A stretch of DNA of 64,000 nucleotides, from assembly GCA_947304355.1 (NCBI GenBank), contig CAMZAX010000001.1, positions 78,950 through 142,949 of the forward strand. The letters run 5' to 3'. Below, in pieces: positions 8,073 through 62,583 of this stretch; position 1 is the stretch's first letter, and every line of letters begins with the position of its first letter. The stretch is from an uncultured Selenomonadales bacterium. Its GTDB lineage: Bacteria > Bacillota > Negativicutes > Selenomonadales > Selenomonadaceae. A program made the position numbers and the translations under genes. The notes beneath the pieces are model-generated. The model saw nothing but the letters and a program-made list of their open reading frames with translations. It had not been told where the DNA came from and did not search any database.

Positions 8073-8162
8073 GGGACAAGGGAAAAGGGACAAGGGGTAA
8101 GCAACTTCCAAATCCCTTGTCCCTAATTCCTCCACTAGTTCCTAGTTCCTAGTTCCTAGTTC
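8073..8162. repeat. Heptamer tract cluster in the dnaK-dnaJ spacer
   Basis: GGGACAAGGG at 8073..8082 and 8087..8096. Inverted copy CCCTTGTCCC at 8114..8123 gives a 10-bp hairpin. 4x CTAGTTC at 8135..8162. Confidence 0.9.
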
Positions 8163-8163
8163 C

Positions 8164-10014
8164 TCATTTCTTGGCGTCTGACCATTCGGCGTCGATTGTG
8201 CCGTCGTCGTCCTTTTTGTCGGAGCCTTGCTGTTGCGTGAAGTCGGTATTGGGTTCGCCTTGAGGATTCGCCGCGCCCGCCTTGTAAGCCGCCTCGCTGA
8301 GTTTGTAAAGGGCTTGACGGACTTCTTCGGTGAGTTTCTTGAGTTCGTCGGTGTCCGCGCTGTCGAGTTTGTCTTTGAGAGCCTGCGCGGCGGTGCGAAC
8401 GTCTTTAATCAGCGCGTCGTCAACTTTGCCTTCAAAATCCTTGCAAGTCTTTTCGGACTGGTAGACAACGTGTTCGGCGTCGTTCTTGGCGTCGGCAGCC
8501 TCGCGTTGTTTTTTGTCTTCGGCTTCGTGAGCGGCGGCTTCTTTAACCATGCGGTCGATGTCGTCTTTGCTCATGCCGCTTGACGATTGAATCGTGATTT
8601 TCTGTTCCTTGCCGGTGGATTTGTCTTTCGCGCTGACGTTGACGATACCGTTGCGGTCGATGTCGAAGGTGACTTCGATCTGCGGAATGCCGCGCGGCGC
8701 AGGCGGTATGTCGCTGAGCACAAAACGTCCGAGGGTTTTGTTGCCCGCCGCCATTTCGCGTTCGCCCTGCAGGACGTGAATTTCGACGCTGGTTTGACCG
8801 TCCGCCGCCGTCGAGAAGACTTGCGATTTTTGCGTCGGGATGGTGGTATTGCGTTCGATAATCTTGGTGCAGACGCCGCCGAGCGTTTCGATACCGAGAG
8901 ACAACGGCGTAACGTCGAGCAGAAGGATTTCGTTGCCCTTGCCGAATTCGCCGCTGAGCACGCCGCCTTGAATCGCCGCGCCGATTGAAACGCATTCGTC
9001 AGGGTTAATGCCCTTGGAAGGTTCCTTGCCGAGGATTTCGCGAATCGCATTTTGCACTGCGGGGATTCTGCTTGAGCCGCCAACCAAAATGATTTTGTCG
9101 ATGTCTTTGCCGGTCAAGCCCGCGTCCTTCATTGCGTTGCGAGTGGGTCCCATTGTGCGTTCAACGAGGTCGCGCGTGAGGTCGTCGAACTTTGCACGCG
9201 TCAACGTCAAGTCAAGGTGTTTCGGACCGCTTGCGTCGGCGGTGATGAACGGCAGATTGATATTCGTCGAAGTCATGGAGCTGAGTTCGATTTTCGCCTT
9301 TTCGGCGGCTTCGATAAGACGTTGCGCACTCATCTTGTCTTTGGAAAGGTCGATACCGTTGTCGCGCTTGAATTCGGAGACCATCCAGTCCATAACCTTT
9401 TTGTCGAAGTCGTCGCCGCCGAGGTGGGTGTCGCCGCTGGTCGCCTTGACTTCAAAGGTGTGTTCGTCGAGTTCAAGGATTGACACGTCGAACGTGCCGC
9501 CGCCGAGGTCGAATACCAAAATGGTTTCGTCGTTGTCCTTGTCGAGCCCGTAAGCGAGAGCCGCCGCCGTCGGTTCGTTGATTATGCGCAAAACTTCCAA
9601 GCCCGCGATGGTGCCGGCGTCTTTGGTTGCTTGACGTTGGCTGTCGTTGAAGTAAGCGGGAACGGTGATAACTGCCTGCGTGACGGTTTCGCCGAGGTAA
9701 GCCTCCGCGTCTGCTTTGAGCTTTTGCAAAACCATTGCGGAAATTTCGGGCGGCGTGTAGTTCTTGTCGTCGATTGAAACTTTGTAGTTTTCGCCCATGT
9801 GACGCTTGATTGAGGAAATCGTTCTGTCGGGGTTGCTGACGGCTTGACGCTTTGCCAACTGACCGACGAGGCGTTGACCGTCCTTGGTGAAACCGACAAC
9901 CGAGGGCGTGATTCTGCTGCCTTCGGGATTGGTGATAACCGTGGGTTCGCCGCCTTCGATTACGCTGACGACGCTGTTTGTTGTACCTAAATCTATGCCA
10001 ATGACTTTACTCAT
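8164..10014 (-). CDS. dnaK: Molecular chaperone DnaK (Hsp70)
   Basis: [18 protein letters not shown] and the full Hsp70 layout. Confidence 0.97.
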
Positions 10015-10032
10015 GATGAAGTTCTCCTTCCG

Positions 10033-10608
10033 TTACGAATTGTTGACTACCTGTACCATACTGGGACGAATGACGCGCCCGCGAGCGATGTAGCCGCGTT
10101 GGAGTTCGGCGGCAATCGTGCCGTCGGGTTTGGATTCGTCTTTGACTGTGCCGACTGCTTGATGATAATTCGGGTCGAAGGGCTTGCCTTGCGTGTCAAT
10201 CGGCTCAAGACCGTGCTTGCCCATGACCGCAACGGTTTCCTGCCGAATCATCTCGATTCCCTTGCGCAATGTATCAACGTCGGCTTGTTCGGCATTTTCT
10301 GCCGCCTGCGTCGCGCGACTCAAGTTGTCAAGGAGCGGGAGCAAATCTTTCAGGAACGCCTGTTCGATTACGTCCGCCAGTTCCGATTTTTCGCGCGCCG
10401 TTCGCTTGCGGAAGTTGTCGAAGTCCGCTTGCAGTCTGATAATCCTGTCGTCCTTCGCGCCGAGTTCCGCTTTCAAATTTTCAAGTTCCGCCGCCGCGTC
10501 GACTTCGGGAGCCGTTTCGACTTCGGGCGCGGGCTGTTTCGATTGTAAATTTATTTCTGCGCTGTCGCCGTCCTCGTTGTCGATAATTACTTTTTTTTCG
10601 TCTGCCAA
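10033..10608 (-). CDS. grpE: Nucleotide exchange factor GrpE
   Basis: Coiled-coil N-terminus and C-terminal GYxxxGRVIRPSMV. TTG at 10608 has GAGG 8 nt upstream; the ORF-track start at 10647 lies inside the predicted promoter. Confidence 0.85.
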   Translation of the reverse strand: MADEKKVIIDNEDGDSAEINLQSKQPAPEVETAPEVDAAAELENLKAELGAKDDRIIRLQADFDNFRKRTAREKSELADVIEQAFLKDLLPLLDNLSRATQAAENAEQADVDTLRKGIEMIRQETVAVMGKHGLEPIDTQGKPFDPNYHQAVGTVKDESKPDGTIAAELQRGYIARGRVIRPSMVQVVNNS

Positions 10609-11604: not shown

Positions 11605-14067
11605 TTATTTCACGACGATGTTAATCAGTTTGTTCGGGACGGCGATAATCTTGACGATTTGCTTGCCCGCCGTCAACGCTTGCACTTTCGGCAACGTCGG
11701 TGCCAACGCCTCAAGGTCAGCTTTGCCCAAGTCGACAGCAACGTTGATTCGGTCGCGGACTTTGCCGTTAATCTGAACGACGATTTCAACTTCGTCCTCA
11801 ACGACAGCCGCCGCGTCAAAGGTCGGCCAGCTTTGCTTGTGAACGTCGCCGTCGAAAAATTGACTCCACAGCTCCGCCGAAATGTGCGGCACGAACGGCG
11901 CGAGCATCAACAGCAAGTCGCGGGCGAGTTCGCGGGCGAGCGTCGGATTAATCGGCTTGTCTTGGAAGGCGTGCATTGCGTTGACGAGCTCCATGAGTGC
12001 GCTTATCGCCGTGTTGAAGGCAAAGCGGTCGCGGACATCCTCCGTGACTTTTTTAATCGTCTTGTGCAACGTGCGGCGCAACGAAATTTCTTCAGCCGTC
12101 AATGCCTGCGCGGCGTCGGGAGATTTGATAGCGTCTGCGAAAATGTTCAGGATACGCCAAACGCGATTCAAAAAGCGGAACGAGCCTTGAACGCCTTCGT
12201 CGCTCCAATCAAGGTCGCGTTCGACGGGCGCGGCGAACAGGATAAACAAACGCGCCGTGTCCGCGCCGTACTTGCCGATAATCTCTTCGGGGCTGACGAC
12301 GTTGCCGAGAGACTTGGACATCTTCGCGCCGTCCTTGATAACCATGCCCTGCGTCAACAGATTGGCAAACGGTTCGTCGTAGTCAAGCATTCCCGCGTCG
12401 CGCAAAACTTTCGTGAAGAAACGCGAATACAGCAGATGAAGTATCGCGTGCTCAATGCCGCCGATGTATTGGTCGACGGGGCTCCAGTAGTTCACTTTTT
12501 CGCGGGCGAAGGGCAGCTCCGTGTTCTTCGGGTCGGTGTAGCGCATGTAATACCAGCTCGAACAAATGAACGTGTCCATCGTGTCGGTCTCGCGGTGAGC
12601 GTGTCCGCCGCATTGCGGGCAGGTGCATTCGACGAAGTGTTTGCTTGTCGACAACGGACTCAACGCGCCCTGCTTGAATTCAACGTCGTCGGGCAGGTGA
12701 ACGGGCAAATCTTTTTCGGGCACGAGAACTTCGCCACACTTGTCGCAATAGATGACGGGAATCGGCGCGCCCCAATAGCGTTGACGACTTATCAGCCAAT
12801 CGCGCAGACGATAGTTGACTTTGCGCTTGCCGAAGCCTTGAGCCTCTGCCTCGTCCATAATCGCCTTAAAGCCCGCGTCGAAATCCATGCCCGTGAACTT
12901 GCCGGAATTAACCAAAACGCCGGCGTGTTCTGTGTAAGCCGCGTCCATTTCGTCGAGCTTGAGCTCCGTGCCCTTGGGTTGCAACGTCAAGATGATGTCG
13001 AGCCCGTATTTTTTCGCGAACATCCAATCGCGTTGGTCGCCCGAAGGCACGCCCATGACCGCGCCCGTGCCGTATTCAAACACGACGTAATTTGTAATCC
13101 AAATCTGAACTTTGTTGCCGTTGAAGGGATTGACGCAGTAAAAGCCCGTGAAGATGCCTTCCTTTTCGGATTCGCTTGACGTGCGTTCAATGTCGCTGTG
13201 CGCGCGGGCTTTGTCGACAAATTTTTTCAACTCGTCGGCTTTCGGGCTGAGCGCAAGAATTTTTTCAACAAGCGGGTGTTCGGGTGCGAGTGCAAGGAAC
13301 GTTATGCCGAACGACGTATCGGGTCGCGTGGTGTAGACGGAAATTTTTTCGCCGAGTTCGGGCGCGTCCAAAGTAATTTCCAAACCTTCCGAACGTCCGA
13401 TCCAATTTTCCTGCATGGTCTTGACGCGCGTCGGCCAGCCCGTGAGCTTATCGAGGTCGGCAAGCAATTCGTCGGCGTAGGCGGTGATTTTGAAGAACCA
13501 TTGCGCCAAATTTTTCTTGTGGACTTCGGAATCGCAACGCCAGCACTTGCCGTCTATAACCTGTTCGTTGGCGAGAACGGTGCCGCATTTGTCGCACCAG
13601 TTGACGGCGGCTTCTTTCTTGTAAGCGAGCCCGCGCTTGTAAAACAATTCAAACAGCCACTGCGTCCAACGATAATAATCTGCGCGGCAGGTTTCGACTT
13701 CGCGGCTCCAATCGTAAGCGAGCCCCATTGCCTTTTGCTGAGCTGTCATGTTGCGGATGTTGGCGAACGTCCAGTTGCCGGGCTTGACGCCGTGAGCAAT
13801 GGCGGCGTTTTCCGCAGGCATACCGAAGGCGTCGAATCCCATAGGGTGCAGGACGTTGTAGCCAGCCATTGAGCGATAGCGCGCAACCACGTCGCCGATT
13901 GAGTAGTTGCGAACGTGACCCATATGCAAGTTGCCCGAAGGATACGGGAACATTTCCAGCGCGTAATATTTCGGGCGCGAGCTGTCTTCGGTCGTGCGAT
14001 AATAGTCGGGCGCGTTCCAAACCGCTTGCCATTTCTTTTCGATTGCTTGAGGATTGTATTTCTCCAT
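11605..14067 (-). CDS. leuS: Leucine--tRNA ligase
   Basis: 820 aa with HMGH (HIGH) and KMSKS motifs and a CP1 editing domain. Confidence 0.97.
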
Positions 14068-29927: not shown

Positions 29928-29930
29928 AAT

Positions 29931-41421: not shown

Positions 41422-41471
41422 TCCGATAATCCCTCCTGCAAATTCAAACGATAAAACTTTTTATAACACGA

Positions 41472-47156: not shown

Positions 47157-47209
47157 ATTTTTTCAGGCATTATACAAATTTTAAGGCTCGCTGACAAGAC
47201 AAAACTTAT

Positions 47210-47228
47210 CCCTTGTCCCTTGTCCCTT
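47210..47228. repeat. Short TTGTCCC-type heptamer tract (intergenic)
   Basis: CCCTTGTCCCTTGTCCCTT. Confidence 0.85.
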
Positions 47229-47287
47229 AACTACGCCTTGCCCGAAATCAACCCGCATGATAAAATTCCGCCGAAGGAGGCGACGAC

Positions 47288-47716: not shown

Positions 47717-47729
47717 AAGGCGGATTACT

Positions 47730-48161: not shown

Positions 48162-48162
48162 A

Positions 48163-48309
48163 ATGAAATTCGACACGACCGGCGACCGAATCGCGGAATT
48201 GGACGCGCGGAACGAACGCTGCGACGAACGCCTTGCCAAATATCAAGACGACTTCAAACGGACGCTGACCGCCATGCGCGACACCTGCCGCGATATTTAC
48301 AAGCTGTGA
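48163..48309 (+). CDS. Hypothetical 48-aa coiled-coil-like protein
   Basis: ATG lies 1 nt after the upstream TAA. MKFDTTGDRIAELDARNERCDERLAKYQDDF. Confidence 0.4.
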   Translation: MKFDTTGDRIAELDARNERCDERLAKYQDDFKRTLTAMRDTCRDIYKL

Positions 48310-48368
48310 CGAACGTTGCCTTTAAGCCGCGCAGGCGTTATAATCGCGTGCAAAGGAGGCTGATTAAT

Positions 48369-49619
48369 TTGCCGGAAAGAAACAGAGTTGTGATTACCGG
48401 GCTCGGAGTCGTCACGCCCGTTGGCATTGGCAAGGATAATTTTTGGGCGGCTCTCACGTCGGGCACCAACGGTATCAAAAAAATTACGCGCTTCGACGCG
48501 ACGGGATACACCGTGCAGATTGCGGGCGAAGTGACTGACTTTGACCCCGCGCTTTTCATTGACAAAAAGGAACTCAAGCGCATGGATCGCTACACGCATT
48601 TTGCGTTGGCGGCGACCAAACTCGCCATTGACGACGCCAAGCTTGACATTGCGACAATCGACGGCGACCGCGCGGGAGTGTTCGTCGGTTCGGGTATCGG
48701 CGGCATGGAGACTTTGCACAACCAATACGAAAAACTTTTCACCAAGGGCGCGAATCGAATCAGCCCGTTCTTTATCCCGATGATGATTGCGAACATGGCG
48801 GCGGGCAACGTCGCGATTGCTTACAAACTGCGCGGACCGAGCGGTTGTCCCGTGACGGCGTGCGCTTCGGGAACGAATGCGATTGGCGACGCGTTTCACC
48901 TTATTCAGCGCGGCGACGCCGATTTGATGTTCGCGGGCGGTTCCGAGGCGGCGATTTCCCCTGCTGGCGTTTCGGGCTTCGCGGCAATGAAAGCACTTTG
49001 CTCCGACCACAACGACGACCCGGCTCATGCGTCGCGTCCGTTCGACAAGAATCGCAGCGGCTTTGTCATGGGCGAAGGTGCCGGCATTGTCCTGCTTGAA
49101 AATCTTGACCACGCCAAAGCTCGCGGCGCGCACATTTACGCGGAAGTTGTCGGCTACGGGCGCAACGACGACGCCTATCACATCACGACGCCCGCGCCCG
49201 GCGGTGTCACGCAGGCAAAGTGCATGGAGCTTGCCTTGAACGACGCAGGACTTAAGCCGCAAGACGTTGACTACATTAACGCGCACGGCACCTCGACGCA
49301 ATTCAACGACAAGGGCGAAACCGAGGCGATTAAAAATCTTTTCGGCGAACACGCTTACAAAATCCCCGTGTCGTCGACCAAATCAATGACGGGTCACATG
49401 TTGGGCGCAGCGGGCGGCGTTGAGGCTGTCGCGTCCGTCATGTCGATTGAAACGGGCATCGTGCACCCGACGATTAATTACGAGACGCCGGACGACGGCT
49501 TGGATTTGAATTACGTCCCGAACGCCGCGCAGACTCACGAAGTCAACGTCGCCATTTCAAATTCATTCGGCTTCGGCGGGCACAACGCTTGCGCCGTCTT
49601 CAAGAAATTCGTCGACTGA
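48369..49619 (+). CDS. fabF: Beta-ketoacyl-ACP synthase II
   Basis: RVVITGLGVVTPVG, active-site ACASG, two His motifs and GFGGHNA. TTG 48369 with AAAGGAGG upstream. Confidence 0.93.
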   Translation: MPERNRVVITGLGVVTPVGIGKDNFWAALTSGTNGIKKITRFDATGYTVQIAGEVTDFDPALFIDKKELKRMDRYTHFALAATKLAIDDAKLDIATIDGDRAGVFVGSGIGGMETLHNQYEKLFTKGANRISPFFIPMMIANMAAGNVAIAYKLRGPSGCPVTACASGTNAIGDAFHLIQRGDADLMFAGGSEAAISPAGVSGFAAMKALCSDHNDDPAHASRPFDKNRSGFVMGEGAGIVLLENLDHAKARGAHIYAEVVGYGRNDDAYHITTPAPGGVTQAKCMELALNDAGLKPQDVDYINAHGTSTQFNDKGETEAIKNLFGEHAYKIPVSSTKSMTGHMLGAAGGVEAVASVMSIETGIVHPTINYETPDDGLDLNYVPNAAQTHEVNVAISNSFGFGGHNACAVFKKFVD

Positions 49620-49637
49620 AAATTTTGCGTAAAAAAA

Positions 49638-49669
49638 AATCCCTTGACAACTGCGTCGGGGGATTTTTT
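49638..49669 (+). terminator. Rho-independent terminator after fabF
   Basis: CCCTTGAC (49641..49648) pairs with GTCGGGGG (49655..49662) and is extended by A/T pairs, followed by TTTTTTG. Confidence 0.65.
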
Positions 49670-49708
49670 GTGTTATAATCGCCGCAAGCAGTTTTTGGGA
49701 GTGGTTGA

Positions 49709-50596
49709 ATGAAGTTGCAAACAATCGAATATTATTTCCGCGAAGTGGCGATCTCAATGATTCGCAACCGCTGGATGACAGCCGCGTCAATCGGGACGGT
49801 GGCGTTGTCGCTGTTCGTGCTGGGCGTCTTTCTGATTCTCGTCATGAACATGAACAAAATGGCGTCGTCGCTGGAAAGTCAAGTGCAAATCTCCGTGTAC
49901 ATAAACGACAACCTGCCCGAAGACGGCCGCAAGGAAATAGAACGCATGACGCGCGAAATGAAAAGCGTTTCGGCTGTCGAATACGTGCCGCGCGAACAGG
50001 CGTTGAAAATTTTGCGCGAACGGCTCGGCGAAAACAAAAAAATTCTTGACGCGCTGGGCGAATCGAATCCGTTGCCCAACGCCTTCCTCGTGACGGTCAA
50101 ATCCGCCGACGACGTGAAGAAGACAGCGAATCTTATCGGCGACCTTTACGGCGTCGACGAAGTTAAATACGGGCAAGACGTTGCGGCGAATCTTTTTGAG
50201 CTGACGCACCTTATGCGGCTGTTCGGCGTGATTTTGATGGCGTTGCTCCTGTTCGCGACGATTTTCATCATCTCCAACACGATACGGCTGACTGTCTTCG
50301 CGCGGCGCAAGGAAATCGCAATCATGAAATATGTCGGCGCGACGGATTGGTTTATTCGTTGGCCGTTCATCCTTGAAGGCGTGGCGTTGGGCACAATCGG
50401 CGGCGGCGTGAGCGCATTGGCGTTGCGCAGTTTCTACGCGGCGATGATTGACAAAATTTACGAGTCGCTGGCGTTTTTCCCGATGATTGAACAATATCCG
50501 TTCATGCAATACTTGACAATCGCATTAATCGTCGCGGGCATTGTTATCGGCATATCGGGCAGTACCGTTTCGTTGAAACGCTTCATGGAGGTTTGA
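49709..50596 (+). CDS. ftsX: Cell-division permease-like protein FtsX
   Basis: N-terminal TM, extracellular domain and 3 C-terminal TM segments. YFREVAISMIRNRWMT is a typical FtsX start. Confidence 0.85.
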   Translation: MKLQTIEYYFREVAISMIRNRWMTAASIGTVALSLFVLGVFLILVMNMNKMASSLESQVQISVYINDNLPEDGRKEIERMTREMKSVSAVEYVPREQALKILRERLGENKKILDALGESNPLPNAFLVTVKSADDVKKTANLIGDLYGVDEVKYGQDVAANLFELTHLMRLFGVILMALLLFATIFIISNTIRLTVFARRKEIAIMKYVGATDWFIRWPFILEGVALGTIGGGVSALALRSFYAAMIDKIYESLAFFPMIEQYPFMQYLTIALIVAGIVIGISGSTVSLKRFMEV

Positions 50597-50600
50597 GGCT

Positions 50601-51833
50601 TTGAAAAAATTTTTTATCCTGTTGACGGCGACAATGCTCATGTTCAACGCGACGACCTTCGCCGACGACGATGACGACGAAATCGAACAGCTCGAAGTCG
50701 AAAAGGCGTCCTACGAAGAGGCTGCCGAACGCGCCCGCCAAGCCGCCGAATTGATTCAAGGCAAAATCGATTCCGTCTCCGAATTCAAGCGGCAACTCGA
50801 CGAGGCGGCGGCAGAAGCTACTGCGGTCTACGAAGAACGTCAAGCCGCGCTCGACGAAACGCTTTACCGCATTGACGAAAACGAAGTCAAGCTCGCCGAA
50901 GTCACCGAGGAGCTCAACGCCAAACATCAAGTCCTTGAAACACGCGTGCGCGACATTTACATTAACGGGCAAATTTCTTACCTGGACGTGCTGTTCGGCG
51001 CGCAAGACTTCGGCGACTTCCTGACGCGTATGGACTTGCTCAAGCGTGTCATAATCCGCGATTCTGAGCTGGTGGCGGACGTGTTGGCTTATCAAAACGA
51101 AATCAAGGAAGTCGGAAAGCAACTCGAAGCAGATCGCAAAGTCCAAACCGAATTGGCGGCAAAGGCAGAGGAAGCGCGGGACGTTCAACTTGAAAAGGTC
51201 GCGAAACAGCAAGCACTGATTGACTTAATGCAGAACGACAAAGACGTTTACGACCGGCAGTACGACGAAATGATGGCATCAAGTGCAGAAGTGCAACGGC
51301 TGATTCTCGCCAAGGAAGAAGAACGGCGGCGGGCGGCAGAAGCGGCTGAGGCGGCGCGTCGGCAAGCGGAACTGGAGGCGCAACGGCAAGCGGGCAACGT
51401 CGACATTGTGGAGTTTGGTGACGACAGCGGCTACGTCATGCAGAGCTACGGCGGCGGCATGATTTGGCCAATCAGCGGTCCGATAACGTCCGAATTCGGC
51501 TGGCGCACGCATCCGATTTTCGGCAGCGCGCGTTTCCACAGCGGGCTCGACATCGGCGGCGATTACGGTATGCCGATTCACGCGGCTCAAAGCGGCGTCA
51601 TCATTGAGGCGGGCTGGATTGGCGGCTACGGCAACACTGTTATGATTGATCACGGCGGCGGCATTGTCACGCTTTACGGGCACAACGAAAGCCTTGCGGT
51701 CAGCGTCGGTCAGCAAGTCAGTCAAGGGCAGGTCATTGCCTATTGCGGCTCAACTGGCAACTCGACGGGTCCTCACTGCCATTTTGAAGTTCGTGTCGGC
51801 GGCGAGCCCGTCAGCCCGTGGGATTACTTATAA
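50601..51833 (+). CDS. Coiled-coil M23 peptidoglycan metalloendopeptidase (EnvC/PcsB-like partner of FtsX)
   Basis: Signal peptide, ~250-aa coiled coil, then HSGLDIG...GNTVMIDHG...GSTGNSTGPHCHFE. Confidence 0.85.
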   Translation: MKKFFILLTATMLMFNATTFADDDDDEIEQLEVEKASYEEAAERARQAAELIQGKIDSVSEFKRQLDEAAAEATAVYEERQAALDETLYRIDENEVKLAEVTEELNAKHQVLETRVRDIYINGQISYLDVLFGAQDFGDFLTRMDLLKRVIIRDSELVADVLAYQNEIKEVGKQLEADRKVQTELAAKAEEARDVQLEKVAKQQALIDLMQNDKDVYDRQYDEMMASSAEVQRLILAKEEERRRAAEAAEAARRQAELEAQRQAGNVDIVEFGDDSGYVMQSYGGGMIWPISGPITSEFGWRTHPIFGSARFHSGLDIGGDYGMPIHAAQSGVIIEAGWIGGYGNTVMIDHGGGIVTLYGHNESLAVSVGQQVSQGQVIAYCGSTGNSTGPHCHFEVRVGGEPVSPWDYL

Positions 51834-51838
51834 TTAGA

Positions 51839-51888
51839 AATGCGAAATGCGCAATGCGCAATTAAAAAACCATTACGCATTTCGCATT
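51839..51888. terminator. Hairpin built from AATGCGN heptamers between convergent genes
   Basis: AATGCGAAATGCG (51839..51851) pairs perfectly with CGCATTTCGCATT (51876..51888). AATG/CATT extends the stem after a 1x1 mismatch. Confidence 0.6.
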
Positions 51889-51907
51889 ACGAATTACGCA
51901 TTGCCTT

Positions 51908-52798: not shown

Positions 52799-54304
52799 TC
52801 AATCAAAAATTTCATACGCGCCGAAGAAAATCAGAATTTCGCGCGCCGCGCTCGTCTCGCTGTCGGAGGCGTGCACGGCGTTTTTGGTTTTGTCCTCGGC
52901 GTAAAGCTTGCGAATCGTACCGTCGGCTGCCTCGGCGGGGTTGGTCGCGCCGTTGAGCTCGCGGACTTTTTTTATCACGTCGTCGCCGCAAAGCACCAAC
53001 GCCATAATCGGCGCGCTCGTCATGAAGTCAACCAGCGCGGGATAATAAGGACGTCCGATGTGTTCGACGTAATGTTTCGCGGCAAGTTCGGGCGTCATGC
53101 GCATGACTTTCGCCGCCAAGATTTTAAAGCCCGCGTCTTCGTAGATTTTGAGAATTGCGCCCGCGTGACCTTTGCCGAACGCGTCCGGCTTGATAAGCAC
53201 CAAAGTTTTTTGCATAGAGTTTGCTCCTCCGTAAAATTTATAAATGTCTTCCGCTGAATTTATTCCGTAGTCGCTAAGTTTGACGGCTCGCATGAAATTT
53301 CCTGTCTTGTGCCGATACCAAGTCATAACCTCGTTCATGGTCGGCGAAGGCAATTTCAACGTCTCGGCGAACTGCAAGAGAATGTCCAAGCCGAATTCAA
53401 AATCGCACTTGAAATATCTGTTGTCGAAGTCGGGACGCCAACCGTCGGCGGCTTGTTTCATCGGCGAAAGGATTTTGCTTAAAGACGAAATGCTCCGCAA
53501 CTTTTTCGTCAAGGCGGGAATGGTGTCGCTCTCGTAGTGAATTTTCAGCGAAATTACGTCACTCAAGTCAACTTCAGGCAACGCTCGGCAGATGGCTTGA
53601 ACTTCGTCATCAAGCTTGAATAAAATTTCGGAGGCTTTATCGTTCCACGCCGCATAAAAAAGTTCATTGCGTTCAAAAGCCGAATCCGACTGCCCGAACA
53701 TTGCATAAAGCCGCGACGTGTGCAGGACGGGATTTGACGGCGTCAACGTTATAGACAAATAATTATCGGTCGCCGCGCAGGGGACGGTAAAAAGTTTTTC
53801 CATGTCGCGAACGACAGAGGTTGTATCTTTGCCGCGAAATGCCGCCAAGCTTATCGACGGCTTGCGCTCAAACCAAACGCTTTTGCCGTATTGTTTCAGG
53901 CGGGCGATATACGGCACGCGCGTGAAGCCGAACAACTTCGCGCCGCGTTTCAAAAGCGGTTGCAACAAAAATTCTGCGCCGCCGAAGCCCGGTATCATTA
54001 CAAGCTTTGTTTTGTAGTTGACGAAGGGCGCAACTTTTTCGGCGAAGGCAGCTTGAACATGCGACGGCAACGTTACGAAAATGTAATCGGTCGAATCGAA
54101 AGCCGCCGCCGCGTCCGACGTTACCAAGTTCAAATCGGCGGAAAATTCCTGCGCGGGCTCCCCCGAAGTGGTAATCGACGCAAAAATTTTTCTTTGCCAA
54201 TCTTGCGGGCGTGAAGTCAAAACGTTGACCGTATGATTTTTCGCGGCGAAGTCGACAGCCATTGCCGTACCCAAGTTGCCGCCGCCGACGATGCAAATTT
54301 TCAT
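52799..54304 (-). CDS. In-frame fusion of an opine (octopine/nopaline-type) dehydrogenase-like domain and nucleoside-diphosphate kinase
   Basis: MKICIVGGGNLG Rossmann start and TPSNPVLHTSRLY (Octopine_DH-like). The C-terminal 138 aa, MQKTLVLIKPD...NAVHASDS, is NDK. An internal GGAGGAG SD lies 8 nt before the NDK ATG (53215). Confidence 0.7.
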   Translation of the reverse strand: MKICIVGGGNLGTAMAVDFAAKNHTVNVLTSRPQDWQRKIFASITTSGEPAQEFSADLNLVTSDAAAAFDSTDYIFVTLPSHVQAAFAEKVAPFVNYKTKLVMIPGFGGAEFLLQPLLKRGAKLFGFTRVPYIARLKQYGKSVWFERKPSISLAAFRGKDTTSVVRDMEKLFTVPCAATDNYLSITLTPSNPVLHTSRLYAMFGQSDSAFERNELFYAAWNDKASEILFKLDDEVQAICRALPEVDLSDVISLKIHYESDTIPALTKKLRSISSLSKILSPMKQAADGWRPDFDNRYFKCDFEFGLDILLQFAETLKLPSPTMNEVMTWYRHKTGNFMRAVKLSDYGINSAEDIYKFYGGANSMQKTLVLIKPDAFGKGHAGAILKIYEDAGFKILAAKVMRMTPELAAKHYVEHIGRPYYPALVDFMTSAPIMALVLCGDDVIKKVRELNGATNPAEAADGTIRKLYAEDKTKNAVHASDSETSAAREILIFFGAYEIFD

Positions 54305-56130
54305 GCCGCCAACTCCTTTTTCAGCGCGGCAAGCAATTTGTCATTGTCTTCCGTCGCACGCACCGCCAAGCGCAGATAATTCTTGCCCGAAACTTTTGCC
54401 GACAGGTCTTTGACTAAAATGTTGCTGCCGATTAAAAGCCGCTTACAAAGCTCCTTCGACGACGTGTCGCCCGTAAGTTCAATCATGATGAAATTCGCCT
54501 GCGACGGCACGACGCGCACGCCCGAAATTTTTTCCAGCTCGGCGGCAAAGCGTCTGCGTTCAGCGCGGAGGCGGCAGAGCGATTCGACATAGGCACGCTT
54601 GTACTTCTCGAAAATCTGCATGTAAAATTCCGCGAACGAATTGATATTCCAAATGACGGCGTCCCGTTTCAGCGCGGCGATAAGTTCTTCGTCGCCCGAA
54701 GCCAACACGCCCAAACGCAGTCCGCCGATGCCGTGAGACTTCGACAGGCTCTTCATAACGCAAAGGTGTTTGTTTGCGCTCAAAATTTTTTGCTCAATCA
54801 ACGTCGCGTCCTCGTCGGCGAAGTCTGCAAAGCTTTCGTCGACAATCAGCCGAATATTTTTTTCCGCCGCCCAATTAATCAGCCGAATCAGTTCAAGTTT
54901 CGGAATGAAGTTGCCCGAAGGGTTGTCGGGATTGACGACGACCAGCGCGCTTATCTCCTGCCCGCCGAAGAAATTCATCAGCTCGGCGGCGGTGTAGGAA
55001 AAGTTTTCGTTGTCCGGCGCGAAGTAAACGGATTCGGCTTTGTCGTAACGGTTGGGATATTCCTCGAACGTCGGGCGCACGAAACCGACTTTGCCCGAAA
55101 GACGTTGCAGTAGCGACTTAATCAGCTCGGCGGCACCGTTGCCGACCAAAATATTTTCCTCGTGCACGCCGAAATTTTTCGCTGCAAGCAAAGCGTTGAC
55201 TCTCATGCCGGACGGATATTGCGTCAAAAGTTTTGCGGCGTTGGCGGTAATTTCTTCGACAAGCCTTTGCGGCGGGAAGTAGGGATTAACCAGATAACAA
55301 AAATCAATCAGCTTGGGATAACGCCAGTAGCCGCCGTAACGCCCTTGAATGCGTGCAAGCTTTTCGTCGGCGTCGGGCGCGAAGATTGATTCGGCAATGT
55401 CCAAATCCTGAATGTCGTCGATTTCGTACCAGCGCAAAGCTTTGTCGCGCTCACGAATCGAATCCAACCGCTTGGCGCGAATCTCCGGCTCGTCGAGAAT
55501 CATAATGACGCGCAAAACCTGTTCGTAATATTCGTTGTTGCCCAGAGCTTTCGAGTAGGCGTCAAGGAAAGGCACGTAAAGATTTTCTGAGAAATGCCGC
55601 CCGAATTTGTAAATGTTGACGGTCTTGTAGCAGTCGGCGGTATCCTTGAAGTCAAAGTTCTTGCCCGAAATGAACTTGTCGATTTTGTCGTCGGCGGTGA
55701 GTTTTATGCAGGTGCCGTCCATCCAGCTTTCGTACTTGTCGACGAGCGCGAGCGTTTCACGCGGGTCGTTAAGCAACGCCTCAAGCAAGCTGTCTTCAAA
55801 AATCAAATCGGACTCAAGCAAAAGCGTATCTTCCTTGCAAAGAAAATCTTTCGCCAGAAACAGTGAATAGATATTGTTCGTCTTGTCGTAAGTCGGATTG
55901 TTGACGTAGACAATCGGCGTCTGAATGTCGAGCGTGGCGATATAGTCAATCAGCTTTTGACTTTGATAGCCGACGACGATAACAATGCGCGACAGGTGTT
56001 GCTTTTCGAGCTGGTGAAGCATTCTGTCAATCAGCGTGACGCCGTTGACTTTGACCATGCATTTGGTGTTGTCTTGCGTCAATTCTTTCAGCCGCTTGCC
56101 CATGCCCGCAGCGAGAATAACAGCTTGCAT
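54301..56130 (-). CDS. Fusion of a LicC/MobA-like nucleotidyltransferase and a class I/II PLP enzyme (HisC/CobD-like)
   Basis: MQAVILAAGMGKRL...NNIYSL (NTP-transferase); NPDNPSG...SLSKSHGIGGLRLG (PLP lysine). Confidence 0.75.
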   Translation of the reverse strand: MQAVILAAGMGKRLKELTQDNTKCMVKVNGVTLIDRMLHQLEKQHLSRIVIVVGYQSQKLIDYIATLDIQTPIVYVNNPTYDKTNNIYSLFLAKDFLCKEDTLLLESDLIFEDSLLEALLNDPRETLALVDKYESWMDGTCIKLTADDKIDKFISGKNFDFKDTADCYKTVNIYKFGRHFSENLYVPFLDAYSKALGNNEYYEQVLRVIMILDEPEIRAKRLDSIRERDKALRWYEIDDIQDLDIAESIFAPDADEKLARIQGRYGGYWRYPKLIDFCYLVNPYFPPQRLVEEITANAAKLLTQYPSGMRVNALLAAKNFGVHEENILVGNGAAELIKSLLQRLSGKVGFVRPTFEEYPNRYDKAESVYFAPDNENFSYTAAELMNFFGGQEISALVVVNPDNPSGNFIPKLELIRLINWAAEKNIRLIVDESFADFADEDATLIEQKILSANKHLCVMKSLSKSHGIGGLRLGVLASGDEELIAALKRDAVIWNINSFAEFYMQIFEKYKRAYVESLCRLRAERRRFAAELEKISGVRVVPSQANFIMIELTGDTSSKELCKRLLIGSNILVKDLSAKVSGKNYLRLAVRATEDNDKLLAALKKELAA

Positions 56131-57944
56131 TAAATCATCTCCGGTTCTTTTGCTACTGCGTTAAAAATAAATTCGCTTGCCGACATGCCGTTGCGCTTGC
56201 GATAATTCAAACACGCGTCGAAAACTTCGCGGCGTTTGTCTTTCAGCGGGTCGTCGCCTTCGATAAAAATCTTTTGAACGGCGGCGGCAATTTGCTCGTG
56301 ATTTTTCCCGTCGACAATGTATGAAACTTCCAAGATTTTTTCGCCAAGTTCGGTGAATCGCTCCGCCGGGTTATTTAACAGAAAAATCATCGGCTTGTGC
56401 GTGAATTGATATTCGGCAATGAAAGAGCAGCTGTCGTGAATCATGCCGTCGCTTGTGGCAAAAATCGCTTGATAGTAGCCGCCGGTGCAGACTTGCGCGT
56501 TGGGCAGGTCGTTCCACATCTGCAGATACTCGTTGAATGCCTCGTCGGAAGGAAAAAGCTTTGTATTGGTTGCCACTCTCAGCAGGCGGGGATGCGGCTT
56601 GACGACCCAAGACGTTTCGGGGTGCGCCTTTGCGAATTCGTACATGAATTTATAATTCCAAGGAAACGTCGCGTAATTTTCGGGCGGGTTGTCGTATTCA
56701 AACGACCAATGCGGTGCCCAAATGATTTTCACGGCGTCGGAGCGCGTCTTCTTCCACGGGAACGAAAGTTTGTCGGCGTTCTCCAAAAGCAAATCCATTT
56801 TCGGCGCGCCGCTGACAAAAGCGCGCGGGACGCCAACTTTGCAACCTGCGTCAAAGAACTTGAGCGTAACTTCGCTGTTGAAAAAAAGTTTCCACGCGAG
56901 GCAGAAGACGGGAAGATTGCAATTCCAATTAATTAATACCGGACCAATGCCGTAGTGCATATAACATATGAGCGTTTGCGGTGTCAGCACGTCGAATTGA
57001 AAGCTCCGCGAAAAATGTTCGAAATACGGGCGCAAGAAAAACACCACGTCTTGAGGCGGCGTCTCTTCCTGCAAATCGTAAATGGCGACGACGTTAAGCC
57101 CTGCCGTCTTGAATTGCTCGACATCGTGCACGGCGTCCGCCAAGGTTGATTCTTCACCGTGACAAAGAAAAATCGTCGTCTCGAAACGCGGATTCTCGGC
57201 AAAGAGATTGTACAGCTTATCGCCGCACCACGTGGCAGCGTGATCCGTCACGAAGGCGACGCGAATTTTTTTCTTGCAGCGGAGGTTTTCGACGGTGATT
57301 GAAAAAATTTTCGCCATCAGCTCGTTGAAAAAATCTTTGTCCGTCACGTAAGACAGCGCGAAAAAATACGAATACGGCAATCGGCAAAAATCTTCCTGCG
57401 AAAAAATTTGCAAGTTAAGCAACCGCATTGCCAACGTCACGCTCGCGACGAGTGCGCCCGCGTCATTTAAGCGCGTCTCGTCGTCGAAGGCGGTTTCGGA
57501 AATTTTCACGTCGAACATATCCAAAACCTTGAGGTCGCGGGATTTTTGCAGCTCGGTCAAAATATCGACAAGCGGCGTCAGAAACATTTTTTGATAACGT
57601 GCGCGGGCGGCGGGGGCGACGGGCATAATCACCGCGACGGGCAACGCGCCTTTAGAGCGGCAAAGTTCAATGCAGTCGCTTAAAGCCTGAAAGTTGTCGT
57701 CGAAGACTTCGGGCGTCAAATTATCGTTCGCGTCGCGAAACAACACGTCGCAAGTCAAACCGATAAGCACGAAATTAATTTCGCCGCGCCCGACCAGTTT
57801 GAAAAGACTTTCCGCCGTCGCAAGGCTTTGTGGAAGAGTTTGTCCGTTGCCGGCGAAGTTGCCGCTTTGCGAATCGACGGGCGTCAAGAGATTCAAATTA
57901 AGCCCCGCTTTGACCGCACCGTTACCGATTGCAAAAAATTTCAT
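56130..57944 (-). CDS. TagB/TagF-family (CDP-alcohol phosphotransferase-like) enzyme with an N-terminal SGNH/DltD-like domain
   Basis: C-terminal IIWAPHWS...SDGMIHDSCSFIAEYQFTHKPMIFL corresponds to the YAPTxR...DYSS...KP pattern of Glyphos_transf as I recall it. Confidence 0.6.
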   Translation of the reverse strand: MKFFAIGNGAVKAGLNLNLLTPVDSQSGNFAGNGQTLPQSLATAESLFKLVGRGEINFVLIGLTCDVLFRDANDNLTPEVFDDNFQALSDCIELCRSKGALPVAVIMPVAPAARARYQKMFLTPLVDILTELQKSRDLKVLDMFDVKISETAFDDETRLNDAGALVASVTLAMRLLNLQIFSQEDFCRLPYSYFFALSYVTDKDFFNELMAKIFSITVENLRCKKKIRVAFVTDHAATWCGDKLYNLFAENPRFETTIFLCHGEESTLADAVHDVEQFKTAGLNVVAIYDLQEETPPQDVVFFLRPYFEHFSRSFQFDVLTPQTLICYMHYGIGPVLINWNCNLPVFCLAWKLFFNSEVTLKFFDAGCKVGVPRAFVSGAPKMDLLLENADKLSFPWKKTRSDAVKIIWAPHWSFEYDNPPENYATFPWNYKFMYEFAKAHPETSWVVKPHPRLLRVATNTKLFPSDEAFNEYLQMWNDLPNAQVCTGGYYQAIFATSDGMIHDSCSFIAEYQFTHKPMIFLLNNPAERFTELGEKILEVSYIVDGKNHEQIAAAVQKIFIEGDDPLKDKRREVFDACLNYRKRNGMSASEFIFNAVAKEPEMI

Positions 57945-59903: not shown

Positions 59904-62498
59904 TTGAATAAATTTGATACCGTCCTCGTTATGCCCGATCAGACTTTTCTTGAAAATGCCGTATCAAATTTGAACTTGGATAACGTAAACCTGGTCGCCG
60001 TCATGACCGAAACCGCAGACGACGCAGAGCCGCTGACAATCAATCAGCAAATCGTCCTGCACGTCGACTTTTCCGCCGTCAAAGAACTTTTAAATCAAGA
60101 GAGCGACACGCTGTGGCTTATCTGCGGCTGCTTGAACGGCATTGAAGACATTCGCCGCGCCAAGGAACGCTTGACTGCCGACGGCGTCCCCGAAGACAAA
60201 ATTATAAACTTTGAACTCGCCGCGCAGATAAATTTTGCATGGTTGGCAAATCTCCGCCACGTCGAAAAGAACGGCGCAGATTTTTTCGTGACGGGTGCCT
60301 CGCTCAGCGAACTCGGTCTGGATTTCAAATACATGCCCGGCGGCACGGGCGTCAATCTCGCCGACTGCAGGCAAGATTTGCGGCAAAGTTATCTGACTGC
60401 CAAACACGTCTTTGAACACGTCGCGCCCGGCTCCGTCAAGTTCGTCCTTATCGGCATTGAGCCGTTTGCGTTTGATTACGACGACCTCGACAGCTTTGCC
60501 GTCTTCCCGAAAAATTTTCAATACGAACTCGCGTTCAACGACGCGCCGAATTTTTCTGCCCTGCGCCGACCCGAATTGCTCAACGAAATTGTCAAAGAGC
60601 AACTCAAGCCCGCGTCCGTCGAAAAGCCCGATTTGAACTTCGACAACACGAAAGCTTACTTCAAGCAGCTGTTCCCGAACAAAATGTTGCTTGCGTCCAA
60701 GGGCGACATGAAATTTCTGACTGCCGCCGACATCGATAAAAATCTGCAAATCCTCAATGAATACATCGCTCTTTGCCGCGCGCACGGTGCCAAGCCCGTC
60801 GGCGTGATTATCCCGTTCCCGTCCGCGACTAAAAATTTCGTCGACGAAAAAATTCTTGAAACCTTCCGCCAAAAGCTCCGCACCCTCGAAAAAGATTCCG
60901 ATTTCTTTTTCGCAGACCTGTCCGTCGCAAATCTCCTTGACAATTATTTTTACTCGCCGTATCACTTGAACTTGAAGGGTGCCGTCGCAACGAGTGTTTT
61001 ACTCAGCACGCGCCTCTTCGGCAAGGAAATTGTTTCGTCGCAGGAAATTTGCAACATGAGCAGCGAATATTTCGACGTGCTGTCAAAAATGTTCCCGAAA
61101 AATTACAACACGGTCATGGCGCAAATCTTCACCGACATACCTTACGACAACTTCAAACAGCTGTCCGACAAAATACCAAAGGAAAGTTTCTGCGACTTGC
61201 TGGAACAATTTTTCTTCGACATGCCCTATGACGAATTCAAAAAGCTGTCCAAGACTTTGCCCAAAGACGAGTACAACGACTTCATGGCGCAAACCTTTGC
61301 GGCGTCCGAACGCAGACTAAGCCGCGCGAAAAAAATAAAAGTCGGCTTCGTCATATTCAATTCGTCAATGTGGTGCGGCGACGAACTGTATAACCTCTTC
61401 GCCCGCGACGAACGCTTCGAGCCGACCGTTTTCCTCTGCCGTTCTAACGAAGACTTCAGAAACATGCTTGTTCAAGACGAATTCACGCAAAGCGTCGAAC
61501 GTTTCAAATCCCACGGCTTGAATCTCGTCTTGCCGACAAGCATAGACGACAAAATGCCTCCGCAAGATATTTTGATTTTGCTGTCGCCGTATGTGCCGCC
61601 TTTGCCGAGAGACTTTCGCACGTCGACGCTCACAGTGAAAACTTTGATGATTAACATTCCGCATTCGCTCAGCATTTCAAAGCGCGACGAATTTTTGGAC
61701 AGCTCCCTTTTCCATGTCGTGTGGAAAATGTTCTTTTCGTCGACGATCGAATTGGAACTGCAAGACAAAATGTGCTCCGTGGGTATGCCGCGCGGCATTT
61801 ACAGCGGCTATTCGAAAATGGACGAGTTCTTTGACCCGAATCGGATTTTCAGTTTCAGCTGGAAGTTGACGCGCCCCGACGCCAAAAAAATCATTTACGC
61901 GCCGCATTGGTCGATAAACGCCTCCACAAAATACGCAACCTTCCAATGGAATTATCAATTCATGTACGAATTCGCCAAAGCGCACCCGGAAATTTCTTGG
62001 GTCGTCAAGCCGCACCCCGCGCTGTTTTTCTCGGCACTCGATGAAAATATTTTCCCGTCTTCTGTCGAACTTGAAGAGTACTTTCAAAAGTGGGACGACT
62101 TGCCAAACGCGCAGGTTTACACAGGCAACTACTATCAGTCAATCTTCGCCACGAGCGACGGCATGATTCACGACAGCGGCTCCTTTATCGCCGAATATCA
62201 ATACGTCGATAAGCCGATGATTTTTTTGACGCGCGAAGGCGAAGTTTTCAACGAACTGGGCGAAAAAATTTTGGCGGCGTCCTATCCTGTCGACGGCAAA
62301 GATTTTGACGCCATCTCCGCCGCGATACAAAAAATCTTCCTGCAGGGCAACGACGACAAGTATGCCGAGCGCAAGGCTGTTTTCGACGAGTATCTTAATT
62401 ATCCGAAGTATCTGGGTATGTCGGCGAGCAAATTCATTTACAGAAGCATTGCCGAGGCTCTCAAGCCGGCAGTCGGCGTAAAAGGGGCTAGGAACTAG
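59904..62498 (+). CDS. Second, longer TagB/TagF-family paralog with an SGNH/DltD-like N-terminal region and 28-aa tandem repeats
   Basis: IIYAPHWS...SDGMIHDSGSFIAEYQYVDKPMIFL is highly similar to 56130..57944. The last codons and the TAG stop lie in a heptamer tract. Confidence 0.6.
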   Translation: MNKFDTVLVMPDQTFLENAVSNLNLDNVNLVAVMTETADDAEPLTINQQIVLHVDFSAVKELLNQESDTLWLICGCLNGIEDIRRAKERLTADGVPEDKIINFELAAQINFAWLANLRHVEKNGADFFVTGASLSELGLDFKYMPGGTGVNLADCRQDLRQSYLTAKHVFEHVAPGSVKFVLIGIEPFAFDYDDLDSFAVFPKNFQYELAFNDAPNFSALRRPELLNEIVKEQLKPASVEKPDLNFDNTKAYFKQLFPNKMLLASKGDMKFLTAADIDKNLQILNEYIALCRAHGAKPVGVIIPFPSATKNFVDEKILETFRQKLRTLEKDSDFFFADLSVANLLDNYFYSPYHLNLKGAVATSVLLSTRLFGKEIVSSQEICNMSSEYFDVLSKMFPKNYNTVMAQIFTDIPYDNFKQLSDKIPKESFCDLLEQFFFDMPYDEFKKLSKTLPKDEYNDFMAQTFAASERRLSRAKKIKVGFVIFNSSMWCGDELYNLFARDERFEPTVFLCRSNEDFRNMLVQDEFTQSVERFKSHGLNLVLPTSIDDKMPPQDILILLSPYVPPLPRDFRTSTLTVKTLMINIPHSLSISKRDEFLDSSLFHVVWKMFFSSTIELELQDKMCSVGMPRGIYSGYSKMDEFFDPNRIFSFSWKLTRPDAKKIIYAPHWSINASTKYATFQWNYQFMYEFAKAHPEISWVVKPHPALFFSALDENIFPSSVELEEYFQKWDDLPNAQVYTGNYYQSIFATSDGMIHDSGSFIAEYQYVDKPMIFLTREGEVFNELGEKILAASYPVDGKDFDAISAAIQKIFLQGNDDKYAERKAVFDEYLNYPKYLGMSASKFIYRSIAEALKPAVGVKGARN

Positions 62499-62512
62499 GG
62501 ACTAGGGACAAG
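62484..62512. repeat. Mixed heptamer tract
   Basis: GGGGCTA GGAACTA GGGACTA GGGACAA G. Confidence 0.9.
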
Positions 62513-62513
62513 T

Positions 62514-62556
62514 AAAAAATCCCCGCCGCTCTTCGTGAGTGACGGGGATTTTTATT
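62514..62556. terminator. Bidirectional terminator hairpin, near-duplicate of 32857..32888
   Basis: AAAAAATCCCCG ... CGGGGATTTTTAT. Shares TCCCCGCCG...GTGAGTGACGGGGATTTTT with the earlier site. Confidence 0.6.
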
Positions 62557-62583
62557 TGCGCATTACGCCTTGCACATTACGGA

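Follow-up and report, generated by a model that had tools for sequence, protein, structure and literature searches.

Tandem heptanucleotide arrays at gene ends and in protein loops of a Selenomonadaceae genome

The sequence analysed here, referred to as the window, is the whole 64,000-nucleotide stretch of contig CAMZAX010000001.1 whose first lines stand above. It has a G+C content of 54% and holds grpE-dnaK-dnaJ, leuS, rmlD, FabF, FtsX with a PcsB-like M23 peptidase, and RimO. Since the closest homologues of three window proteins carry the names Selenomonadaceae or Quinella at NCBI, the host is a Negativicute (Selenomonadaceae, related to Quinella); it probably stems from the rumen. Scattered through the window are short tracts of head-to-tail seven-nucleotide units, which are the subject of this report. 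They had been noticed in an earlier reading made from the letters alone (the sequence-only reading), where they were described as a family of tandem heptamers in a Firmicutes-type genome, resembling short tandemly repeated repetitive (STRR) sequences. The description of the family proved right, and Bacillota-type genes together with the homologue names bear out the assignment of the genome. The tracts belong to the known class of heptanucleotide repeats. New are the host lineage, the replacement of terminator or attenuator hairpins by arrays, and the fact that particular protein loops were occupied in frame, repeatedly and by the same unit families.

The window was searched for arrays with Tandem Repeats Finder (TRF) and with our own period scan. 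The tracts and their immediate companions are as follows, each with the methods on which the entry is based.

8072-8100, minus strand: GGGACAA-type array, reading GGGACAA GGGAAAA GGGACAA GGGG on the plus strand (TRF interval 8072-8096; TRF, fold, G-quadruplex scan)
8114-8123, minus strand: inverted partner CCCTTGTCCC, which pairs with 8087-8096 (sequence, fold)
8124-8134, minus strand: TAATTCCTCCA, a reversed AGGAATT-type unit adjoining the partner at 8114-8123 (sequence)
8135-8164, minus strand: (GGAACTA)x4.3 on the transcribed strand, given by TRF as CTAGTTC x4.3 with 100% matches
29852-29884, plus strand: (AGGAATG)x4.4 (TRF interval 29852-29882; TRF, list of open reading frames, Pfam)
29886-29909, plus strand: (TTGTCCC)x3.4, nested between two AGGAATG blocks (TRF)
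29914-29928, plus strand: (AGGAATK)x2, ahead of an amidase gene that is Amidase_3 in Pfam (own scan)
39894-39928, minus strand: (GGCAAGG/GACAAGG)x5 in the N-terminal tail of a glycosyltransferase, given by TRF as CCTTGYC x5 (TRF, homologue N-termini, Pfam)
42206-42238, minus strand: (TTGTCCC)x4.7 on the coding strand, encoding CPLSLVPCPL, given by TRF as GGGACAA x4.7 (TRF, Pfam, homologue alignment)
47193-47228, no strand assigned: (TTGTCCC)x3.4 at 47205-47228 with an inverted GACAAGACAA partner at 47193-47205 (TRF, fold)
51837-51904, no strand assigned: long hairpin of two inverted arrays, GAAATGC x3.7 at 51837-51862 and CATTACG x4.6 at 51871-51902 (TRF, fold)
62483-62512, plus strand: GGGGCTA GGAACTA GGGACTA GGGACAA, given by TRF as GGGRCTA x4 at 62483-62509 (TRF, sequence, open reading frame)
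62514-62553, no strand assigned: ordinary bidirectional terminator hairpin, not an array, with arrays on either side (fold, terminator scan)
62558-62582, no strand assigned: degenerate CATTACG-like stretch, GCATTAC GCCTTGC ACATTAC GG (sequence only)

All tandem 7-mers of the sequence-only reading were recovered with the exception of the last site: the stretch at 62558-62582 does consist of three degenerate CATTACG-like units, but it was not reported by TRF. Two-unit probes run across the window, allowing up to two mismatches, added no further site. Compared to the shuffle expectation, these probes gave 14 matches for GGGACAA (0.21 expected), 5 for GGAACTA (0.12), 4 for AGGAATG (0.23) and 4 for CATTACG (0.43). 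Six runs with ten or more self-matches in succession at lag 7 were counted in the window, whereas 100 simulations with an order-3 Markov model yielded 0.15 on average and 2 at most. Among periods 4-13 and 15, none besides 7 rose above background; 14, the exception, is a multiple of 7. Head-to-tail units beyond compositional expectation and an excess specific for period 7 place the tracts among the heptanucleotide long simple sequence repeats (LSSRs) in the sense of Mrazek 2007. Few unit families recur at many unlinked sites. Four can be distinguished: GGGACAA (variants GGGACTA and GGGGCAA), GGAACTA, AGGAATG/T, and CGTAATG (variants CGCAATG and CGAAATG). They form nine clusters, seven of them intergenic and two within coding DNA, in a window that is ~90% coding according to a rough gene map. 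The earlier statements that all but two sites lie at gene boundaries, that the units occur on both strands, and that different unit types are juxtaposed within a tract were confirmed in this way.

Intergenic arrays are commonly inverted and fold into long hairpins where relatives hold attenuator or terminator stem-loops, in line with the RNA structure that had been named as a candidate function. The site at 8072-8164 fills the dnaK-dnaJ spacer, whose neighbours were identified as HSP70 and DnaJ by Pfam. The (GGAACTA)4 array begins immediately past the dnaK stop codon and is followed by the reversed AGGAATT unit and a hairpin with the arms GGGACAAGGG/CCCTTGTCCC; the array at 8072-8100 is the 3' arm of the hairpin in the spacer transcript (fold of −36.6 kcal/mol). 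Spacers of relatives, denoted here by L numbers, were collected by a metagenome scan with DnaJ, which gave a graded series. Four relatives with 74-84% DnaJ identity have a common simple hairpin, GCAGGGGAGGGAGACAAATTCTCTCTCC, before the ribosome-binding site. In the window this hairpin is replaced by the one described above together with (GGAACTA)4, and in L125 (80% DnaJ identity) by an inverted (GTGRTTA)5/(TAAYCAC)4 array followed by U8, with a fold z score of −6.7. The closer relative L130 (97% DnaJ protein identity, ~93% DNA identity) keeps the ancestral-type hairpin and carries, directly past the stop codon at its positions 9853-9938, an inverted array of 8-nt units, AGGGAAAT x5 versus ATTCCCT x4. 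The phenomenon is therefore not strictly heptameric.

A second comparison concerns the spacer in which the M23 peptidase and aldose epimerase genes converge. Here L204 has a textbook bidirectional terminator, AAAAATCCCCC...GGGGGGAAATTTTTTTT, in place of which the window carries a comparably sized hairpin of inverted CGTAATG/CATTGCG arrays (51837-51904; fold z scores of −3.0 and −4.3 for the two strands). The compared spacers show that tandem-unit hairpins supplanted ordinary GC-rich stem-loops at both positions, that the array units differ by lineage, and that turnover takes place within ~7% DNA divergence.

Other intergenic arrays reach into the signals of adjacent genes. The DUF3006 gene (29611-29877) extends into the AGGAATG array, which supplies its TGA stop codon. 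The TTGTCCC block at 29886-29909 pairs with this upstream AGGAAUG array in the RNA fold, and the block at 29914-29928 provides a GAGGA Shine-Dalgarno motif 6 nt ahead of the TTG at 29931, the probable amidase start as judged from a signal-peptide-like N-terminus. Similarly, the TAG stop codon of an 864-aa gene (59904-62498) is provided by the array at 62483. The tract at 47193-47228 lies in the divergent promoter region between a solute-binding-protein gene (minus strand) and a 142-aa gene (plus strand). With stop codons and ribosome-binding motifs supplied by arrays, gene callers may be misled.

An Rfam search of the window gave no match to a curated family at any tract. Pairing of the AGGAAUG and UUGUCCC arrays through G·U wobbles, which is available to RNA only, was also considered: the two strands fold to a similar degree, neither of them better than shuffles, so that there is no evidence for strand-specific selection on these arrays. 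Canonical G-quadruplex motifs occur four times in the 64 kb, and three of the four are heptamer tracts. Four G-tracts are present at half of the six GGGACAA-family loci (8073, 42208, and 39899 on the minus strand) and absent at 29886, 47205 and 62484; in the 8072-8100 array the motif lies on the plus strand. GGAACTA, AGGAATK and CGTAATG have no G-runs and cannot form quadruplexes.

Arrays persist only in variable sequence, namely in spacers and in dispensable loops, linkers and tails of proteins. Of the two coding arrays in the window, the one at 39894-39928 lies in frame in the basic tail (MAKRKARDKGQGTKGKVK) of a GT2-TPR-GT41 glycosyltransferase of 1467 aa, counted from the TTG start at 39942. 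Homologues have MAKRKAKKVDKIKISACY in this tail and the window has MAKRKARDKGQGTKGKVKISACY; the array is imperfect, with 78% matches at period 7 in TRF. The other, at 42206-42238, belongs to an ABC exporter gene (41593-43149), where it keeps the frame in the linker that joins the membrane domain to the ATPase domain. In most of 60 homologues this linker reads ...LKNFLxxAEEVSGSVEKILMPPSI... and contains no array, and in a scattered subset it is an array-encoded peptide, with a net length change of +1 to +2 aa. At the DNA level, (TTGTCCC)4 is found in the window. Its place is taken in the relative L122 (87% protein identity) by an equally long TAGCCCC CAGTCCC TAGTCCC CAGTCCC, and in L205 by a decayed version. 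The tract length is constant across a clade of 75-87% identical proteins. L203 carries a different family, CATTGCG CATTACG CATTGCG CATTACG, whose different upstream context points towards an independent origin. A second CATTACG tract of L203 replaces eight loop codons with the length unchanged. For the L203 tracts, the nearest tract-free relatives are ~84% identical.

The same families were found in MurE, for which the 70 closest homologues were aligned and the loop peptides of 120 were classed. The loop just ahead of LHVTGLFNVYN is ancestral-like (DGMKFKIRGDFGVMNLSL) in 74 of the 120 and array-encoded in ~46. The array peptides are LSLVPCPLSL (from TTGTCCC), QLGIRNEELGI (from AGGAATK), QCVMRNAQCVM (from CGTAATG) and juxtaposed combinations of these. 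Arrays were verified in the DNA of L005 (about 3165-3260) and of L221, where an inverted AGGAATT-type pair lies in frame in murE and the same pair is found in the murC/ddl-ftsQ spacer 8 kb off (DNA positions of the array pairs 4963-5040 and 13079-13122). A left boundary of CAATTA directly followed by GGAAT is common to the window, both L221 sites and L005. A Selenomonadales genome from a pattern scan has in-frame TTGTCCC arrays in its genes for MurE, HypF and an Hsp70-like protein. Judged from these alignments, occupation of the ABC linker and the MurE loop by the same families extends to many Selenomonadaceae. GGGACAA/TTGTCCC is free of stop codons in all six frames, which fits its being the sole family inside genes in the window; CATTRCG is stop-free on the strand that is read. 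Two further observations concern individual relatives. The inverted pair in murE of L221 would specify the two strands of a hairpin loop in the protein, and in L107 and L069 (Selenomonadales metagenome-assembled genome) GGGACAA arrays are in frame in HypF (IRDKGQGTS) and, within a 1015-aa Hsp70-like protein, in the linker (EEQGTRDKGQA).

Beyond the lineage, exact (GGGACAA)3 was searched in 596 Gb with one genome per species. It was found in over 119 stretches, whose genomes belong to at least 12 phyla, compared to ~0.3 matches expected for a random 21-mer; the genome of the window itself is not among the 119 matches listed. Among the matches listed are Bacteroidota, Acidobacteriota, Chloroflexota, Gemmatimonadota, Planctomycetota, Cyanobacteria and Bacillota as well as Pseudomonadota, Desulfobacterota, Verrucomicrobiota, Armatimonadota/Abditibacteriota, Patescibacteria and Omnitrophota, and several genomes among them have 3-6 matches each. 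The 8-kb stretches around (GGGACAA)3 contain further heptamer arrays, many with units one base away from GGGACAA. The premise that tandem heptamers are a hallmark of cyanobacteria is too narrow, with heptamers published for many phyla and this one alone present in at least 12.

Similar to cyanobacterial STRR, the tracts have 7-nt units in several families per genome, dispersed over mainly intergenic sites (four families and nine clusters in 64 kb) and partly arranged as inverted stem-loops. In contrast, the host with its Selenomonadaceae and Quinella homologues and Bacillota-type genes is a Negativicute and not a heterocystous or filamentous cyanobacterium, ancestral hairpins are replaced, and arrays are in frame in genes. 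The classical units are CCCCA(A/G)T for STRR1, TT(G/T)GTCA for STRR2 and CAACAGT for STRR3, none of which is matched by GGGACAA, GGAACTA, AGGAATK or CGTAATG. To our knowledge, Selenomonadaceae were not included in the 2007 survey by Mrazek. Nostoc also has small dispersed repeats (SDRs), which Elhai is said to have described in 2008.

According to the accounts of Mrazek 2007 given elsewhere (PMC4679880, PMC4692102), heptanucleotides are over-represented among the LSSRs of many bacteria, and polymerase slippage was put forward as a hypothesis. LSSRs with units of 5-11 nt, as portrayed there, resemble the window tracts in the dominance of heptanucleotides, the sporadic distribution and slippage as the proposed generator; a recurrent in-frame occupation of the same protein loop is not part of that portrayal. 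Rehm et al. 2015 reported G3N4 heptamers, GGGAATC in Xanthomonas and GGGGA(C/T)T in Nostoc, which form quadruplexes in vitro, lie near the ends of open reading frames, are transcribed from both strands and, at conserved positions, vary extensively in length and sequence between close relatives (PMC4692102). The G3N4 units, the position near reading-frame ends and the variation between close relatives at conserved positions are found here as well, whereas only the GGGACAA/GGGACTA family of the window has G-runs. The CAGTCCC/TAGTCCC units in the ABC linker of L122 are the complement of GGGACTG/GGGACTA and come near the Nostoc unit GGGGA(C/T)T (PMC4692102). For TAACTGA repeats, MacGregor 2015 described a patchy occurrence in Beggiatoaceae, cyanobacteria and Bacteroidetes, in part within open reading frames, with no evident mechanism (PMC4679880). 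One heptamer spread across distant phyla, a mostly intergenic location near starts with some copies in reading frames and the lack of an evident transfer mechanism are common to both cases. The unit differs, and the strong orientation bias upstream of starts seen for TAACTGA contrasts with mixed orientations and inverted hairpin arrays here.

As for function, heptamer repeats affect the expression of recF and recO in Nostoc according to a preprint (bioRxiv 10.1101/2022.06.06.494920), and the 7-bp repeats in the hmw promoters of Haemophilus influenzae are phase-variable with many units, the copy number of which tunes expression (PMC8262952, PMC12721329). The hmw repeats are single loci with documented variation, whereas many loci with 3-5 units are found here and the tract that was tested is invariant. 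REP/BIME/REPIN elements and the Nostoc SDRs are likewise short intergenic hairpin repeats at gene ends with genome-wide spread, in which sequence is replaced and not simply inserted (PMC3116915). REPs are single imperfect palindromes of 20-40 nt that have a conserved head motif and are mobilised by a RAYT transposase. The arrays, in contrast, are tandem with variable unit number and without conserved termini, and no RAYT-like gene or other transposase was found in the window. The Quinella genome paper makes no mention of such repeats.

The tracts are reproduced in independent assemblies, a check that had been suggested along with the sequence-only reading. A Logan contig from run SRR20324751 matches window 46173-51902 without a difference and stops precisely at the array end, and a second independent contig is identical to window 38606-42231 and begins inside the 42206 array. 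Four assemblies, each from a different sample, agree in every base of the tract at 47205-47228, with single-base differences nearby, and 39894-39928 and 51837-51902 are likewise identical in contigs of other assemblies. The breaks of the independent short-read contigs L001 and L219 at arrays (window 51902 and 42231) are expected if the arrays are multi-copy sequence; arrays fragment short-read assemblies of the host organism. Short-read contigs that end inside arrays might be taken to indicate an assembly or sequencing artefact. With identical tracts in assemblies from four samples and with tracts in intact reading frames conserved across relatives, this was ruled out and has practically no probability.

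We give about an even chance to the explanation that the tracts are STRR-type heptanucleotide families of simple sequence repeats, resident in the Selenomonadaceae genome, that spread as follows. Slipped-strand mispairing would expand and homogenise the arrays, and template switching within the palindrome would keep inverted arms complementary. New sites would be seeded by copying existing arrays and not from local sequence, through microhomology-mediated template switching or gene conversion, and purifying selection would leave only in-frame, stop-free arrays inside genes. The main phenotypic effect would be structural, likely via RNA hairpins at gene ends, with possible G-quadruplexes for the G3 family. 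Some arrays may incidentally donate stop codons or Shine-Dalgarno motifs, and on/off switching would not be their role. Propagation by copying together with internal slippage is thus favoured, the copying being the step that we infer, and the footprint of a repeat-spreading mechanism, one of the candidates named earlier, gains support. Several results weigh against this explanation. The hairpin at 29852-29909 is no better than shuffles (z score of −0.5). That at 51837-51904 lacks a U-run of the kind following the array hairpin in L125 and was not called terminator-like in the terminator scan, so its equivalence to a terminator is positional, not demonstrated. An inverted partner lies nearby in only 9 of 123 cross-phylum arrays, and hairpin formation is therefore not a general property. 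No donor-recipient pair sharing an idiosyncratic unit order was found, meaning that no copying event was caught. Finally, cross-phylum GGGACAA arrays lack conserved termini and target duplications and their edges decay into degenerate units, which fits local growth as well as copying.

Local growth in its full form means that each array arose by slippage from a chance proto-repeat and that certain heptamers, containing G3 or C3 and free of stops, are expansion-prone or best tolerated. Degenerate array edges without conserved termini, an exact CCCTTGT unit in the ancestral dnaK-dnaJ hairpin, unit numbers and variants that differ at every locus and the lack of an enzyme gene linked to arrays at the 119 listed loci all agree with such an origin, and a polymerase-footprint hypothesis is published, attributed to Mrazek 2007 in later papers (PMC4679880, PMC4692102). 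We nevertheless consider it possible but doubtful. Ancestral-state sequences at three sites fit the incoming unit no better than shuffles (159-994 of 1000 as good), in several genomes the same three to four families recur in unrelated spacers, the ABC linker and the MurE loop, and in-frame murE arrays built in single 7-nt steps need frameshifted intermediates. A four-unit array in an essential gene cannot be reached by single 7-nt slippage without a frameshift, which favours multi-unit one-step events or sheltered intermediates. In a process of templated patch-copying, ~25-60 nt of resident sequence would be replaced in one step from an existing genomic array, mostly where DNA is hairpin-prone, and intermediates might survive through the polyploidy of large cells such as Quinella. 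This is unlikely in our estimation. If true, it would explain the shared families in unrelated spacers, the in-frame murE arrays and the patchy cross-phylum occurrence of STRR-type repeats, which would then be the footprint of a distinct, uncharacterised mutational mechanism and not of ordinary slippage. Arrays might also be written by an enzyme devoted to this task or by a mobile element, for instance a reverse transcriptase, a primase-polymerase or an HUH-type transposase, as could be read from the patchy distribution with several matches per positive genome, the in-frame and about length-neutral replacements in genes and the recurrent boundary CAATTA/GGAAT. However, no candidate gene lies in the window, and no family is linked to the arrays at the 119 listed loci, near which only generic families (ABC ATPases, short-chain dehydrogenases, histidine kinases and isocitrate dehydrogenase) were found. 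Flanking sequences were compared for 135 GGGACAA arrays of many phyla and showed no conserved termini or target duplications, only decaying units, and (GGGACAA)3 is rare in viral contigs (9 matches), which makes a dedicated writer very unlikely.

The remaining alternatives assign a regulatory role to the tracts. A regulator that recognises tandem heptamers in RNA or DNA sequence-specifically, with the tracts as its binding sites in a transcriptional or post-transcriptional network, would agree with tracts less than ~50 nt from starts or promoters (8072-8164 at dnaJ, 29914-29928 at the amidase gene, 47205 at the divergent promoter) and with proposals and reporter data from other taxa (TAACTGA in Beggiatoaceae and heptamers in Nostoc; PMC4679880; bioRxiv 10.1101/2022.06.06.494920). 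Such a network appears quite unlikely to us, as the tracts are found in both orientations with respect to transcription, at 3' ends, in convergent spacers and in coding DNA, their four unit families are unrelated, the genes beside them share no function, and a relative of ~93% DNA identity has a different unit of period 8 at the same site. Contingency loci, in which slippage of the unit number toggles genes as in the hmw promoters, had also been among the earlier candidates. The tract in the 5' coding region of the large glycosyltransferase is a formal candidate, belonging to a typical phase-variable class, and the 47205 tract lies beside the −35 elements of the divergent promoter. This latter tract did not vary in unit number among the four assemblies, the single test that was possible and one that covers this short tract only; no sign of phase switching was found, and the earlier suggestion of switching by slippage was not supported. 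Against toggling also speak the ABC coding tracts, which are in frame and constant in length, the imperfect glycosyltransferase array and the neighbouring genes, most of which are housekeeping (dnaK/dnaJ, FtsX-associated M23 peptidase, murE in relatives). Contingency loci are accordingly highly improbable.

The rumen Selenomonadaceae, many close relatives of which are present in rumen metagenomes, offer an unusually tractable natural experiment: the same positions, that is, the dnaK-dnaJ spacer, the convergent terminator, the ABC linker and the MurE loop, are in the ancestral state or held by different array families. How tandem heptamer families arise and what they do has been a standing question since the cyanobacterial STRR, and the Xanthomonas/Nostoc and Beggiatoaceae papers end without a mechanism. 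The allele series makes testable local growth versus copying, the functional replacement of terminators and the tolerance of essential proteins towards repeat-encoded loops; the mode of spread can now be examined with rumen population data.

Some further features of the window were observed. A 6S (SsrS) RNA gene at 24774-24954 on the plus strand (46.7 bits, gathering score 46.4) is the only Rfam match that reached the threshold. Positions 1-4000 are low in G+C (42% compared to ~54% elsewhere) and hold a DUF4417 gene (836-1537, minus strand), a gene with a bacterial EndoU nuclease domain (3140-3631, plus strand) and several open reading frames without family match; this part is probably acquired DNA or a toxin module. 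Repeats of other periods are a 38-nt unit x2 (77% matches) at 13220-13296 within the leuS reading frame and an in-frame 18-nt unit x2.9 at 28667-28719 in the N-terminal low-complexity region (DTKPKTDTQAE...) of a lipoprotein with metallo-beta-lactamase fold. The 501-aa open reading frame at 52799-54304 (minus strand) begins with a part resembling octopine dehydrogenase and has a nucleoside diphosphate kinase at its C-terminus. The latter is a separate 138-aa gene in L204, so the window frame represents a fusion or a lost stop codon. The open reading frame at 62584-63999 (minus strand), cut by the window end, gave no Pfam match at 1e-5 and has Gly/Asp-rich repeats (GAGDDSISISGGSASINAGKGDDSI) reminiscent of calcium-binding RTX repeats; a gene adjoining the ABC exporter in L203 has a faint HemolysinCabind match. 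Two large paralogues at 56130-57944 (minus strand) and 59904-62498 (plus strand) have a common C-terminal region (...APHWS...ATF.WNY.FMYEFAKAHPE.SWVVKPHP...). The longer one gives a weak CDP-glycerol glycerophosphotransferase match, and the sugar-nucleotide/aminotransferase cluster around both may serve the synthesis of a surface polymer.

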